A stretch of DNA of 10,755 bases from contig CBDDTI010000258.1 in the NCBI GenBank assembly GCA_965233585.1, forward strand, positions 1 to 10,755, in the 5' to 3' direction. A program made the translations under genes and the position numbers. Of the stretch, positions 905 to 10,755 are shown in pieces. This DNA is from a bacterium (GTDB lineage: Bacteria; SAR324; NAC60-12). The notes under the pieces are model-generated. The model saw only the letters and a program-made list of their open reading frames with translations, was not told where the DNA came from and ran no database searches. The stretch's first letter is position 1. Each line of letters opens with the position of its first letter.

Positions 905-1146
905 TTTCGCAAAACATAAAGATAATGTTAGATTTTAGGATGAACTGTTCTTGAGCAGAGTTTATTTTGATAGAGATGGATTTGAAGTTGGAGGTCTAGA
1001 CAGGCTCTTTCGAGCTCGATGTAGGCACATTTCTTCTCAAAACGTTCTCAAAACACCTTAAAACAGTCTTAAACGGGCTTTTAACCATCCGTTTACGCAT
1101 AAAAACCATCTTGAAGCGCTCTCAAACCACCTTGATGGCATCTACA

Positions 1147-1392
1147 TTGAGCCTGTTGCAGGCTCAATCGAGCCTGTTTTTGTCTGTAATCGGCCTGCAA
1201 CCGGCTTGTTTTCGTCTGCAAACGGCTTGCAACAGGCTCAATCGAGCCTGTAATCGGCCTGCAACCGGCCTGTTTTCGTCTGCAATCGGCTTGCAACAGG
1301 CTCGATTGAGCCTGTAATCGGCCTGTTGCAAGCCGATTGCAGACGAAAACAGGCCGATTACAGGCTCAATCGAGCTTGTTGCAGGCCAATTG
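1147..1392. repeat. Palindromic array: 64-bp direct repeats built from 10-11 bp subunits, followed by an inverted copy
   Basis: CTGTAATCGGCCTG at 1184, 1248 and 1312 (period 64). The hairpin CAGGCTC-AATC-GAGCCTG recurs. Perfect 36-bp inverted arms at 1266-1301 and 1321-1356. Confidence 0.92.
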
Positions 1393-1460
1393 TAGTCAAA
1401 AACAAAGCTGTATTTCAGTATATTGTTAAACCTTGTTCAGATAACACTTGTTGCAAAATC

Positions 1461-6243: not shown

Positions 6244-6963
6244 ATGCCGAAATCTTACGTTTGTCCTGAATGTCAAAAATCGTTTGTTAGAAAATCTTCT
6301 CGCGACAAACATCATTTATTCCGTCATCGCAAAACTACAAAATCTCAAACTCGGACTCCGCTTAATCAGTCGTTTCAATGCCCATTTTGCGAGAACAAAG
6401 TAAGTTCCTTTAAATCAAGAAAAGATTTAGTCTCTCACATTGATGCTTCTCATTTGGAAAATTTACAATATTTATTACACAAATCAGCACTTAACGGAAA
6501 AATCAAATTTTATCGAAAACACATTTTTTCGAAAGAAACACTTAATGGTTTTGCTGCAAATAAAAAAAATAAACAAGAAATAGTTGACGTTATTCGTCAC
6601 GAATTAAGTAAAACTTTTACGGTTAAAGTCGCCCTTATTTTGACAGCAGCGTATCAAATTCCTGATTTGAATTCCGCTGCAGAGAAAAAAGACATTGAAT
6701 CAGATAATACCGATATTAGTGATATTTCTAAAAAACCTTCTGATCAGTCGTCGCTTGCAATATTGTCCAATGATCGAGATGTCTTTGCTTTAAGAACCAG
6801 CTACATTCAATTCACGTCTTTTGATTCATCTCGCTCGTTAAAAGGCAAGGTCCAAAAATTATTAAATAATTTAGTAAATCGAGAAGAAGATTTGTTGATG
6901 AGAGGTTCCGGATGGAGATTTGAGTCTTTATCTTTTAGTGATATTCAAATTACTAGTTTTTGA
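6244..6963 (+). CDS. Double C2H2 zinc-finger protein ending in the GSGW module typical of the N-terminal region of Polinton-type PolB, 239 aa
   Basis: YVCPECQKSFVRKSSRDKHHLFRH and FQCPFCENKVSSFKSRKDLVSHIDASH. C-terminal EEDLLMRGSGWRFESLSFSDIQI. Confidence 0.85.
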   Translation: MPKSYVCPECQKSFVRKSSRDKHHLFRHRKTTKSQTRTPLNQSFQCPFCENKVSSFKSRKDLVSHIDASHLENLQYLLHKSALNGKIKFYRKHIFSKETLNGFAANKKNKQEIVDVIRHELSKTFTVKVALILTAAYQIPDLNSAAEKKDIESDNTDISDISKKPSDQSSLAILSNDRDVFALRTSYIQFTSFDSSRSLKGKVQKLLNNLVNREEDLLMRGSGWRFESLSFSDIQITSF

Positions 6964-7015
6964 TTTTTATGGACTTATTTTATCTTATTTAAAATATTTA
7001 AAATAAACTTTGGAA

Positions 7016-9875
7016 ATGGATTTTATAGAAATTCCGCATGATTTAAGGAGATCTAATTGCTTGGAATGGAAAACTCGATACGATAAATTTAACTTTCTTT
7101 ATCTGTACATTAGACATCTTTTTCCTGAAGAAACGGTTTCCGTTGTTGATTTTCGTCAAATGCCAATAAGATTTCTTAAAAAGTTTAATGTAAAAGGTTT
7201 CAAGTTTCCTCTTCAATTTTGTAATTTAAAAAAATTTCTAAAAAAAAACTCCCATTTACCAATTTCAATTTCAGTTTTTTATGAGAGTGAGGGTCAAGTT
7301 TCGAAGTTAGGATTTTTTACTAATAAAAACAACGACAGAAACAAAAACATTTTAAATTTGTTAATGATAAAATATGATCCTGAAATCTCTACTGAACATG
7401 AATCTCTATTTTCCCGCCTTCCAAAATTAGCTAAATGCAAGAAAAAATCTTCTCGTAAAAAGATTGACAATTCTAGTTCTAATGTTAAATTGGGTTTTTC
7501 TTCCAAGTTTAAAAAGATTAAAGATTTAAATCAACAGCACCATTTTTTTAAAATCACTAAAATTCAAGGTTTTTTAAATAATCGGGCTAGACTGGTGTCG
7601 GACAAAAAAGCGGTTCAACAGAAGCACATCTATTGTGAAAAATGTCTGCTACGATTCCGATCAAAATTTAAGAAGGAAAAACATGAACAAACTTGCTACG
7701 ATAAACAACGTGCTGTCTACCCACCCAAAAATTTCTCCATAAGTTTTACCAATCACAGACATAAATTTCAAGCTCCTGTTGTAGGATTTTGTGATTTTGA
7801 AAGTGTGCTTCAAAGAAACAAAGAACGATCTAAGTGTCGATTTTGTTCAAAAACTGAGTGTCTGTGTGCTTTTCCCACCAGTGACGATATAAACGTGCAT
7901 AGACCGGTGGGCTATAGCTTGCTTTTTGTGGACTCCGACGATGAAGTATTTTTTCAAGAAGAATATTTAGGAGAAGATGCGGTTAAACATTTTTTGAATC
8001 GGTTGACTTTTTATGAAAAGGTTGTTGAAGAAAGAAAACAAAAATTTAGACATGTTGTTAAAAGTCAATCTAGTCCGCAAGAATGGCAAATGTATCGAGA
8101 AGCGAAGGTTTGTCATATTTGTGGCGGCCAGTTTAAAAATGAGTCTAGAAATTACAGAAAAGTTTTAGATCATGATCACGTGTCAGGCAAAATAATGGGT
8201 GCGGCTCATTCGTTGTGTAACTTGACAAGATCCGGTCCATACCGCACACCAATTTTTTTCCACAACGCTCAAGGGTAAGAAATTTTTGATTGAGTTTAGT
8301 TATCAAAATAATACAAATTATGCATGCGTTTCAGATATGATTTGCATCTTATTGTGAAAGAATTGAATCTTTCTCAATTTAAGTATAATCCAGAAGTTTT
8401 GGCAAAAAATAGTGAAAAGTTTCGCACTCTTACATTAGGCAAATTTAAAATTCAAGATTCATTAGAGCACATTTCTGCCAGTCTGGATGCTCTTGTTAAA
8501 GATTTAAATCAGACCTCAAATTTTTCCTTTCCCATCTTACAACAAATGGAAAGATTTAAAAAAATTCCTGCTCGTCAAAAATCAAAAGCTTTGAAACTTT
8601 TAAAAAGAAAAGGTGTCTTTTGTTATGAACATTTCCAATCCCTACAAGAGATGAAGAAAAGCCGAAACCTTCCGTCCAAAGACTCTTTTTATTCGGAATT
8701 AAACGAAGAACACATTACGGAAGCGGATTATTCCCATGCTCAAGAGGTCTTCAAATCATTTAAATGCAAAAATGTGGCGGATTACATGATGCTCTATTGT
8801 TCTTTAGACGTTGTTTTGTTGTGTGAAGCATTTCTTCAATACAGAAAAATGGTGATGGAGCATTTTCAATTGGATCCTGTTTATTATCTAGGTAAGTTTT
8901 ATTCTTTAATGTCAAATGTATTGTAATACTAAATTTATTTAACCTTAATTAGGAATTCCTGGATTGAGTTTTGACGTCATGCTCATGTTCTTTGAAAATT
9001 CAGAACAAGCTAAATCAGATAATAAGCTCACAACCAAATCCGAAACTTCCAAACCTCTTGGATCATTAGATGTCTATTCTGATCCTGAAATGGAGCGTTT
9101 TTTCACAAAGGGTATTAGAGGTGGGCAAAGTTTTATCGCCCAGCGTTATGCCAAAGGGAATAGCAATCCTGGAAAAAGCGGCGATCACTTGTTATACATT
9201 GATGGTAATTTTAAACTGTATTATTTAATAAAATTATTTTGTTTTAACTCAACAAATTTTTTTAGCCAATAACTTATACGGAAGTATGGAAACTTTAAAG
9301 TTACCAGTTTCTGATTTTAAATGGGTTCCAAAAAGTGAATTTAAAAGATGGACAGCTAAAGATATCATCAATATTCCTGCGCAAGACGATACAGGTTATG
9401 CGTTTGAAGTTGATTTGCATTATCCATCTCATCTTCATCAGGTAAATCTAATCTTTGGTGCAGCACGTTATTTATTAATTCCGGCAACTTATACACTATT
9501 ATTTTCAGGCACACGATCAATTTCCGCTGGCTCCGTATACAGACACGGTTTCTTTTAAACATCTATCTCCTTACAATCGCCGTTTACTGAAACAACACTG
9601 TCCTCGAGATTATAGGAACAAAAGATATCAAAGCAAGAAATTGTTGAGCACTTTTTATGACCGAAAGAAGTACGTGGTGCATCTGGAAAACCTGCAGTAC
9701 TACCTAAAAAAGGGCATGAAGCTGCTAAAGATAAGAAAAGTCATGAAGTTTCGACAAAAAGCTTTTTTAAAAGAATTCATCGAGAAGGTCACAAAGCTGC
9801 GATCGAATGCCCGCAACGACTTTGAACTAAGGCTTTTTAAACTTTTTGCCAACTCTACTTTTGGAAAGTTTATTG
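7016..9875 (+). CDS. polB: Protein-primed family B DNA polymerase (DNA_pol_B_2, Polinton/Maverick/adintovirus type), 3'-partial: join(7016..8274,8335..8891,8953..9204,9266..9441,9509..9875), 870 codons
   Basis: Exo I GFCDFES; endonuclease-VII-like CHICGG...DHDHVSGKIMGAAHSLCNL; Exo II HNAQG/YDLHLI; RKGVFCYE; Exo III LYCSLDVVLL; YYLG/IPGLSFD; motif A YID/ANNLYG; LHQ/AHDQFPLAP; motif B KLFANSTFGKF. Each slash marks a splice junction that rebuilds the motif. Motif C is absent from the window. Confidence 0.93.
8275..8334 (+). other. polB intron (60 bp, phase 2)
   Basis: GG/GTAAGA ... GTTTCAG/A. Removal gives HNAQGYDLHLIVKEL. Confidence 0.93.
8892..8952 (+). other. polB intron (61 bp, phase 1)
   Basis: G/GTAAGT ... 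TAATTAG/GA. Removal gives DPVYYLGIPGLSFDVML. Confidence 0.92.
9205..9265 (+). other. polB intron (61 bp, phase 1) inside catalytic motif A
   Basis: G/GTAATT ... TTTTTTTAG/CC. Removal gives LLYIDANNLYGSM. Confidence 0.94.
9442..9508 (+). other. polB intron (67 bp, phase 0)
   Basis: CAG/GTAAAT ... TTTTCAG/GCA. Removal gives YPSHLHQAHDQFPLAP, in frame with ORF 9641..9892. Confidence 0.92.
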
Positions 9876-9970
9876 GTAAGTTTCCAAAATAAGATGATTT
9901 ATCCGCGTAAAAAGAATAAGTACTATCATTAAGGGGTCATTTTTTATTTAGAGATCGTTTTTATTCTTAT

Positions 9971-10483
9971 TTACACATCGGGGACAAGTGCGTGGTGGTA
10001 CCTTTGACAGTTGCGACAGTAGGTCCGGACGGAGCTCACCACGCACTTGGCCGCATCGTACTTGTGCTCGTCTTGAGCACGGTTGGAGATGCGGTTGGGT
10101 TGTGGAGATGCGGTGTTGTTGGGGGGGACGTGGCCTGAACTTCTGCTAAAAGCAGCGGTGACCGTCCTCGCCAGCCCGACCACCGCATCGGCAAATCGAC
10201 TGATGAGGCTCCTCCTCGGCAACGTTGGCGGCGCGGTTGGTGGCAGCATCGTCGATGCCATCGACCGGTTTGTCTGTCGGGGATCCGGAGACGGTGGCGG
10301 AGCTGGCGGGATCGGAAGACGGCGGCGCCGCCTCCGGATCTTTGCAAAGTTGTTCGATGCTGGTGCTTCCTCCTCCTCCTCCATCCTGTCCCGCTCCTCC
10401 TCCATCCTGTCCAGCAAAAACACCCCGTCCTGCTCCTCCCTCCTGAACACCCCAATAATCATTCTCGTCCTCGTCCTCTTCAT
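9971..10483 (-). CDS. Hypothetical 170-aa protein: acidic tract, RRRRRR, Pro-rich linker, amphipathic helix and C-terminal CxxC/His cluster; start codon uncertain
   Basis: The stop coincides with the sharp GC-to-AT boundary at ~9971. Two minus-strand AATAAA signals follow (TTTATT at 9960 and 9943). C-terminus KCVVSSVRTYCRNCQRYHH. The competing overlapping frame 10146..10544 cannot be excluded. Confidence 0.55.
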   Translation of the reverse strand: MKRTRTRMIIGVFRREEQDGVFLLDRMEEERDRMEEEEEAPASNNFAKIRRRRRRLPIPPAPPPSPDPRQTNRSMASTMLPPTAPPTLPRRSLISRFADAVVGLARTVTAAFSRSSGHVPPNNTASPQPNRISNRAQDEHKYDAAKCVVSSVRTYCRNCQRYHHALVPDV

Positions 10484-10755
10484 CGTCCTTTTTCTCCTCC
10501 TTCTCCACCTTCCTTCCTTTAATTTGTTTTGAATTTTCCCACATGGGGTTGGTTGGGAAGTTATTAGAAATTAATCACCAAATCTCAACACAATTAATGG
10601 CAAATTATCTCATAAATATCAATAAATTAAATGAATATTAAATTGTAGAATTTGTGATATTGGTTTTATTATGTCATTTTTTTAAAGGAACAAATTTATT
10701 TGTTAATTTTTTTGGTCACTTTACGGGCTGTGGACGGGGACCACAACGACGGAAA

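Follow-up and report, generated by a model that had tools for sequence, protein, structure and literature searches.

Results

A polymerase gene divided by introns within a Polinton-like element

The stretch of DNA analysed here (the window) is the whole of contig C258, 10,755 nt in length, which belongs to a 747-contig, 12.0-Mb assembly filed as a prokaryote genome. At positions 7016–9875 the window holds exons 1 to 5 of a gene that has six in all and encodes a family B DNA polymerase of the predicted protein-primed type (pPolB). Very probably this gene forms part of a multi-copy Polinton/Maverick (adintovirus-like) element of 22.9 kb, with terminal inverted repeats (TIRs) at its ends, in a eukaryotic host. 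The left TIR and an open reading frame (ORF) with zinc-finger similarity lie upstream of the polymerase gene, and a fifth intron, which harbors an ORF on the opposite strand, runs off the end of the contig (Table 1).

The exon and intron coordinates were read from the sequence; a stop-to-stop reading of positions 6900–10000 gave five consecutive plus-strand frames that carry polymerase motifs. Joined, exons 1 to 5 sum to 2611 nt, or 870 codons plus 1 nt, with zero stops. Family B polymerases share the motifs Exo I, Exo II and Exo III, the motifs A, B and C, and KxY, each with a consensus form, and here these occur in order as GFCDFES, FHNAQ-G-YD, YCSLDVV, LYID-x-NNLYG, KLFANSTFGK, FSDTDS and RPKCYS, the last two being seen in sister copies only. 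Downstream of the donor at 9876 the frame closes within a few codons, and the G+C content rises to 0.61 in 10001–10500. In sister copies a last exon (...ENVRNY...CFSDTDSF...RPKCYSMK...) follows intron 5 and supplies motif C (DTDS) and KxY; on contig C224, whose copy is 97.9% identical, it lies 2018 nt downstream, a distance that would place it beyond the end of the window. The complete gene is therefore one of six exons and five introns (phases 2, 1, 1, 0 and 1) that specifies about 1134 aa, of which the window holds the first 870 codons. A plain ORF scan renders the same gene as separate fragments of 422, 200, 102, 90 and 83 aa.

Table 1 Features of the window in order of position
Feature	Positions	Strand	Details
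Left TIR region with subterminal short repeats	1001–1405	.	Similarity to other copies starts sharply at 1001; outermost 22 nt of sister copies missing
Element ORF, 239 aa, C2H2-type zinc fingers	6244–6963	+	Directly upstream of polymerase gene; sub-threshold Pfam zf-C2H2 (20.9 vs 25.2 bits) and zf-Di19
pPolB exon 1	7016–8274	+	1259 nt, 419 codons + 2 nt; N-terminal region, CCHC zinc finger, Exo I (GFCDFES), Cys cluster, HNH/Endonuclease VII insert, first half of Exo II (FFHNAQ)
HNH/Endonuclease VII-like insert between Exo I and Exo II	8069–8227	+	Pfam PF02945, 24.5 bits vs cut-off 23.6; residues 352–404
Intron 1	8275–8334	+	60 nt, phase 2, GTAAGA..TTTCAG; splits Exo II HNAQ/G/YD
pPolB exon 2	8335–8891	+	557 nt; remainder of Exo II, Exo III (YCSLDVVLL)
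Intron 2	8892–8952	+	61 nt, phase 1, GTAAGT..AATTAG
pPolB exon 3	8953–9204	+	252 nt
Intron 3	9205–9265	+	61 nt, phase 1, GTAATT..TTTTAG; splits motif A (LLYID/x/NNLYG)
pPolB exon 4	9266–9441	+	176 nt
Intron 4	9442–9508	+	67 nt, phase 0, GTAAAT..TTTCAG
pPolB exon 5	9509–9875	+	367 nt; ends just past motif B (KLFANSTFGKFI)
Intron 5, first 880 nt	9876–10755	+	Phase 1, donor GTAAGT (ATT G/GTAAGT); continues past contig end
Antisense ORF nested in intron 5	9971–10483	-	170 aa from its ATG

The introns and the spliced frame are conserved among sister copies

A search of the assembly with exon 1 gave 77 matches. We aligned the DNA of 26 copies to positions 7000–9901 of the window and found that, with the window included, 107 of 108 intron instances retain GT..AG; the exception, on contig C288 at 41776, also contains stops. 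Introns in this set are 57–67 nt long, with length differences that are not multiples of three, and exon insertions and deletions are absent or multiples of three in 23 of the 26 copies, the other three (C288 at 41776, C705 at 22767 and C476) being degenerate or partial. When the alignment is read in the spliced frame, the copies differ from the window by 0.087, 0.056 and 0.228 substitutions per site at codon positions 1, 2 and 3, respectively, and by 0.276 in intron interiors; purifying selection follows the spliced frame.

A second set comprised the 33 copies with a complete exon 1 and an exon 5, and so omitted those in which exon 1 is truncated or broken (C224, C476, C79 and C288 at 41776). 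The spliced frame is open in 32 of these 33, namely in 10/11 copies of a sub-family at 87% identity, 11/11 of one at 74%, 2/2 of the C608/C593 pair and 9/9 of the C58/C530 type. All instances of introns 1–4 in this set, together with the four in the window, begin with GT and end with AG (127/127), a pattern that is far beyond chance.

Some sub-lineages lack a single intron precisely. In particular, intron 2 is missing from nine copies of the C58/C530 type, which read through LDPIYYLGIPGLSFD (...YYLGIPGL...), the junction predicted for the window, and the copy on C98 has no intron 4 and reads ...YHKRDDQF... over that site. Because precise absence of one intron is what would be expected from loss through a spliced cDNA, or from independent gain, these sites are likely to act as splice junctions. 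Separately, exon 1 of the C98 copy is broken by a 220-bp insertion (about 7388–7606, minus strand) that resembles a miniature inverted-repeat transposable element (MITE) and has inverted ends of about 15 nt; the copy on C212 at 66418–69452 is broken at the same point of exon 1, and there it is the break that was seen rather than the insertion itself.

We also aligned the exon peptides, each split codon being written as X, to a 1343-aa paralogue without introns from the same assembly (C492), and there was no gap at any of the five junctions. At the Exo II junction the window reads FFHNAQ-X-YDLHLIV against VFHNLSGYDSHLFI in the paralogue, and at the motif A junction LLYID-X-NNLYG against SYLDANNLYG. 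By this comparison intron 1 falls within Exo II (HNxxGYD), intron 3 within motif A (DANNLYG) and intron 5 just past motif B. We infer from these evolutionary patterns that the interruptions are U2-type spliceosomal introns that would be removed by the spliceosome of the host.

An earlier note on this DNA, made from its letters, had described GT-AG introns of 60–67 bp whose removal rebuilds Exo II and motif A, with neither stop nor frameshift over 870 codons, and the gapless junctions, the 127/127 GT-AG borders and the open 2611 nt bear this out. The four introns that it counted are all present in 7016–9875, with a fifth starting at 9876. Its view that the gene is intact agrees with the open frame in the window and in 32/33 copies, but is too generous to the copy in the window, which is cut by the contig end before the exon that carries motif C and KxY. 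The intron positions that it had marked for comparison are conserved among sister copies, apart from the precise absence of intron 2 or 4 in sub-lineages.

A nuclease insert in the polymerase

The motif series is that of a family B polymerase, for which protein priming is predicted. The insert between Exo I and Exo II retains C366, C369, D385, H386, H388, H398 and C401 as invariant residues in 31 sequences. A Pfam search of exons 1–4 returned no PF03175 (DNA_pol_B_2) match; the precomputed annotation of some relatives at 34–40% identity includes this family. A sequence search of the PDB with the intronless paralogue gave nothing meaningful (best E 0.36). The N-terminus of that paralogue is a Rho_N/SAP-like domain.

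Databases hold the intron-bearing gene as truncated first exons

Outside the assembly, intron conservation was read only from the ends of database ORFs. The protein database contains 53 relatives of exon 1, of 237–426 aa, that come from metagenome assemblies, together with a further weak match to a named Hydra protein (399 aa, 26% identity). We aligned 30 of the 53, chosen for near-full coverage and 38–87% identical to exon 1 of the window. Twenty-six of these stop exactly at ...FHNAQG, the intron 1 donor, where the in-frame reading of G/GTAA or G/GTGA gives a stop; the other 4 extend 2–10 residues further. Intron 1 is thus old, its donor being common to relatives down to 38% identity.

As a query for longer proteins, exon 1 found only two, at 26–29% identity, one of them a 1132-aa "uncharacterized protein" of Microplitis mediator. 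The last exon found 123, the best 64% identical and the others at most 44%, many of them ORFs of 1240–1264 aa on large contigs; the matches with a source name come from Photinus pyralis, Mytilus edulis and two EukProt entries labelled 'Skav'. Scans of viral contigs, with a single protein and with an alignment (A1), returned 0 relatives, as did a scan of genome contigs, and a scan of metagenome contigs returned three distant loci only (27–31% identity), among them one with an uninterrupted 1312-aa ORF (L021) and one with ORFs of 914 aa and 328 aa (L019). Relatives outside the clade are long uninterrupted ORFs, and databases know the intron-bearing clade only as truncated first exons.

The assembly itself contains further pPolB lineages, mutually diverged and seemingly uninterrupted (C492, C657, C493, C315, C606, C581, C322 and others), with ORFs of, for example, 1343 and 888 aa; a tblastn search with the C492 protein gave 63 polymerase loci in all.

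The polymerase gene lies in elements with a Polinton gene set

The sequence of the left TIR region is present in inverted orientation at both ends of elements on C224, C579, C30 and C77, which measure 22,963, 23,887, 22,886 and 22,850 bp and have TIRs of 479–580 nt. The two ends are 96–99.4% identical in three of the four and 80% identical in C224. The outermost bases vary between copies through short additions rich in TG (tgtg, ttgtg, gtg, ttg), and the two ends of one element agree (for instance C30 at 1001 and 23886, and C224 at 9572 and 32534). Such variable tips would fit regeneration of the ends during protein-primed replication. Elements often lie head to tail or nested (C328 at 13517–52646; C212; C224), in units that are 95–96% alike and that have a period of about 20.3 kb on C328.

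About 24 other sites in the assembly match the region of the zinc-finger ORF that precedes the polymerase gene. Other genes were read from the sister element on C224, which encodes an rve integrase (PF00665, 38.3 bits, cut-off 32.6) with a chromodomain (Chromo, 27.8 bits, cut-off 25.1). Matches to Pox_A32 (20.0 bits, cut-off 22.8) and Peptidase_C5 (16.9 bits, cut-off 21.3) are weak, and the position and size of the ORFs fit an ATPase and a protease; a 551-aa ORF has sub-threshold C2H2 zinc-finger matches. On the minus strand of the same element (locus L011) a TFIIB-like gene at 14932–15687 (Zn_Ribbon_TF, 33.8 bits, above cut-off, with a weak TFIIB repeat) stands next to a gene at 15761–16306 whose product resembles the TATA-binding protein (TBP; PF00352, 65.8 bits). 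No title or abstract in our literature search describes such a TFIIB-like/TBP-like pair in a Polinton.

For a conserved 457-aa element ORF we built a 450-residue structure model from an alignment of nine in-assembly homologues (pLDDT 72.1, pTM 0.73). A Foldseek search of BFVD with this model gave 135 matches at E ≤ 0.001, headed by a Cotesia sesamiae bracovirus protein (E 1e-21, 22% identity) that represents a bracovirus-borne Maverick remnant; the other matches include adomavirus LO7, an Adintovirus sp. capsid protein, a MELD virus protein, and the major capsid proteins of giant viruses and virophages. The model thus matches a double jelly-roll (DJR) capsid protein. Integrase, capsid protein and pPolB, with the weak ATPase and protease matches, make up a Polinton/Maverick gene set. 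Each other core gene is contained in a single ORF with a start codon close to its beginning, and the polymerase seems to be the only intron-rich core gene.

Intron 5 varies in length and may house a nested gene

Intron 5 measures 941–2322 nt in 25 copies of the window's clade and 55–74 nt in 14 copies of more distant sub-families, and starts with GT and ends with AG in all 39. The antisense ORF within it has a fast-changing body that is low in complexity, G+C-rich, and acidic and proline-rich, and a Cys/His-rich C-terminus (...KCVV..RTYCRNC.RYHHALVP) that has been kept in 16 copies from the window's own sub-family and the one at 87% identity; in the 74%-identity sub-family the ORF is more diverged. 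A tblastn search placed it at the corresponding position in 18 further copies, spread over 16 other contigs, with 28–33% overall identity in most of the more distant ones and the C-terminal motif retained. A short intron 5, as in the more distant sub-families, is too small to contain it. Pfam gave no match for this ORF, and nothing above cut-off for five other ORFs of the window. We read the antisense ORF as a predicted nested gene that intron 5 has acquired.

The window belongs to a eukaryote-like fraction of the assembly

The assembly is filed as one prokaryote genome with a reported completeness of 92.5% and contamination of 2.1%. Five large contigs, 2.9 Mb in total, have bacterial coding density (long-ORF cover 0.83–0.86); most contigs outside these five have low ORF cover, and about 9 Mb of the assembly is eukaryote-like and repeat-rich. 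The window belongs to this latter fraction. Probably, the contigs of a eukaryote contaminate the bacterial assembly, and the host of the element is that eukaryote, probably an arthropod. The nearest look-alike clusters in the ESM Atlas (388–449 aa, partly with Endonuclease_7) are labelled Eukaryota, most often Arthropoda, which is a lead on the host and not proof. A search of the assembly for actin found fragments only. Positions 1–1000 of the window, outside the element, form a G+C-richer flank that repeats internally, with GEGGSKFPEKGLRS recurring in one frame; this flank has no match elsewhere in the assembly.

Discussion

Several observations weigh against a spliced pPolB gene in an integrated element of an arthropod-like host. 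The copy in the window is incomplete, with its last exon off the contig and its TIR tip missing, and the closest copy, on C224, carries stop codons in exon 1. Splicing is deduced from evolution and not from RNA: the seven runs found by the run search, from three studies, include none recorded as RNA, and contigs from four genomic-type runs cover introns 1–4 unspliced, as DNA would. (These contigs cross the introns contiguously, for example over 8262–8472 without a difference and with no joint at the intron borders, and are uninformative on expression.) The polymerase profile match is marginal: of the two families named in the earlier note, Endonuclease_7 is above its cut-off, and DNA_pol_B_2, matched on exon 5, is just under (25.3 bits, E 8.8e-6, cut-off 25.8), with no match to it in the intronless paralogue at E ≤ 0.01. 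A target-site duplication of 5–6 bp was looked for at four elements and none was found, the flanks differing in all four; the tips could not be placed exactly, since a few TG-rich bases vary at the ends. Finally, the assignment to an arthropod draws on automatic taxon labels of look-alike clusters and on wasp-associated protein hits, that is, the best capsid-fold match and weak sequence matches.

Of the alternatives, the one that survives best takes the contigs for genomes or concatemers of a free adintovirus-like virus that assembled together with the bacterium, rather than for integrated copies. The very high depth in the runs that hold these sequences (hundreds to more than 1000), the head-to-tail units, the full virion gene set and the failure to find target-site duplications would all suit such a virus. 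The flanking DNA, however, differs between elements, neighboring units agree at only about 95%, there are truncated or interrupted copies, and the viral contig collection holds 0 relatives; we consider a free virus unlikely. This alternative concerns lifestyle only, and the intron finding is unaffected by it.

It is very improbable that the gene is one of a domesticated host family that has acquired introns and ceased to belong to a mobile element. Introns are a usual feature of host genes, tandem or nested arrays are frequent here, and the lack of a detected target-site duplication would also be in keeping with domestication; yet the gene always occupies the same place in TIR-flanked units of 22.9–23.9 kb with capsid, integrase, ATPase and protease genes, and there are dozens of copies in several young sub-families, with near-identical TIRs in 3/4 elements and tandem units 95–96% alike.

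Slightly less credible again is the proposal that the interruptions are recent introner or MITE-like insertions rather than old conserved introns. Introners are reported within dinoflagellate Maverick-Polinton-like proviruses (PMC11957031), and one copy family here does contain the MITE-like insertion in exon 1. Against this, the sequences of introns 1–4 are mutually dissimilar and match only the introns of sister copies in the 12-Mb assembly, plus three chance matches of 18–26 nt, and their positions are common to sub-families at about 42–87% protein identity, with the intron 1 site extending to metagenome relatives at 38%. Least tenable is a decaying pseudogene in which the 'introns' are chance GT..AG stretches that hide stops or frameshifts: the fragments from the ORF scan and the stops in C224 would suit it, but it is already contradicted by a spliced frame that is open in 32/33 copies down to about 42% exon 1 identity, by the uniform GT-AG borders, by a third-position bias that tracks this frame, and by sister lineages precisely without an intron.

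We therefore return to the six-exon pPolB gene of a TIR-flanked element in a eukaryote. According to this model, the element would reside in nuclear DNA, where host RNA polymerase II would transcribe the polymerase gene and the host spliceosome would remove five U2-type GT-AG introns; Exo II, motif A and the stretch that joins motifs B and C would be encoded by the spliced mRNA alone. Starting at the inverted ends, the polymerase may then replicate the linear element, which the rve-chromodomain integrase may insert. The family may still be mobile today.

On balance we would lean towards a broader proposal, that a whole proliferating, capsid-encoding clade, probably of small marine arthropods, has an obligately spliced six-exon polymerase and otherwise intronless core genes. 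The precise intron losses of its sub-lineages would be the footprint of recombination with spliced cDNA, intron 5 would have grown to 1–2 kb and come to house a conserved antisense gene, and the elements would carry TBP-like and TFIIB-like factors of their own. If true, such elements would be geared to RNA processing and to expression by nuclear RNA polymerase II beyond what has been described for Polintons, and ORF-based virus discovery would systematically truncate them.

Our results indicate that a key replication gene of a Polinton can be intron-rich and yet under selection. The earlier note's placement of the gene with Polintons and adintoviruses has gained from the TIRs, the rve-chromodomain integrase, the DJR capsid protein and the weak ATPase and protease matches, and its statement that relatives are long single ORFs agrees with those of 1240–1264, 1312 and 1343 aa. 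It also anticipated that ORF-based discovery would read the gene as broken, and this is how the 26/30 database ORFs that end at the intron 1 donor present it. Since the protein database shows the gene only as exon 1 fragments of about 400 aa without a polymerase domain, such elements would be scored as degraded or missed entirely. Surveys that cover Polintons, Mavericks and kindred endogenous viruses commonly rely on ORF finders made for prokaryotes or viruses, the stated reason being that the elements have no introns; Bellas et al. 2023 (PMC10120064) justify prokaryotic gene calling in that endogenous viruses "do not contain introns". The family also lends itself as a natural case to two questions: what makes a selfish nuclear DNA element retain introns in only one of its genes, and whether its replication is tied through splicing to the nuclear state of the host.

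The ORFs of intact vertebrate Mavericks are reported to lack introns, "in agreement with" Kapitonov & Jurka 2006 (Barreat & Katzourakis 2021, PMC8097293), and nematode Mavericks are reported to have intronless core genes, with introns only in cargo genes (Widen et al., preprint 10.1101/2022.07.12.499685). Our literature search, whose coverage excludes Kapitonov & Jurka 2006, Krupovic & Koonin 2015 and Pritham et al. 2007, found no account of a Polinton core gene that carries conserved spliceosomal introns.

Comparison with known systems

One precedent for introns is that of the dinoflagellate Maverick-Polinton-like proviruses, in which introners are reported to be mostly younger than the integration (Gozashti et al. 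2025, PMC11957031 / PMC12166617). Both cases involve spliceosomal-type introns in Polinton-like elements; the dinoflagellate introns are described there as multi-copy and transposon-derived, whereas those described here are unique sequences at positions conserved over a deep clade. For the nuclease insert, the polymerase can be likened by description to the HNH-bearing pPolB2, a Polinton polymerase with an HNH-type nuclease insert. Jeong et al. 2023 (PMC10748475) report this insert as specific to the Polintons of terrestrial nematodes and oomycetes, whereas the named relatives here come from insects, a mussel, Hydra and a EukProt 'Skav' entry.

With the Polintons/Mavericks and the proposed adintoviruses of animals, the present elements share a length of 22.9 kb, TIRs, a pPolB, an rve integrase, a DJR capsid protein, and weak matches to an A32-like ATPase and an adenain-like protease; they differ in having five conserved polymerase introns and TBP-like and TFIIB-like genes, and in that a 6-bp target-site duplication was not seen. 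Long single-ORF pPolB proteins with Endonuclease_7 are widespread in eukaryote assemblies. The C492 protein has the same order of domains as the window gene (zinc finger, Exo I, HNH, Exo II–III, motifs A–C), and relatives of 1240–1264 aa carry PF03175 and/or PF02945; unlike the gene in the window, these are uninterrupted, and they are only 26–44% identical to it.

A protein-primed polymerase that would depend on splicing has a parallel in the E2B region of adenovirus, a nuclear virus whose polymerase and terminal-protein mRNAs need host splicing. There, a short upstream leader exon is joined to one long ORF, and the coding sequence is not cut through catalytic motifs at five places. The gene described here is intron-rich, and the family of Maverick/adintovirus-like elements to which it belongs is otherwise typical and apparently active.

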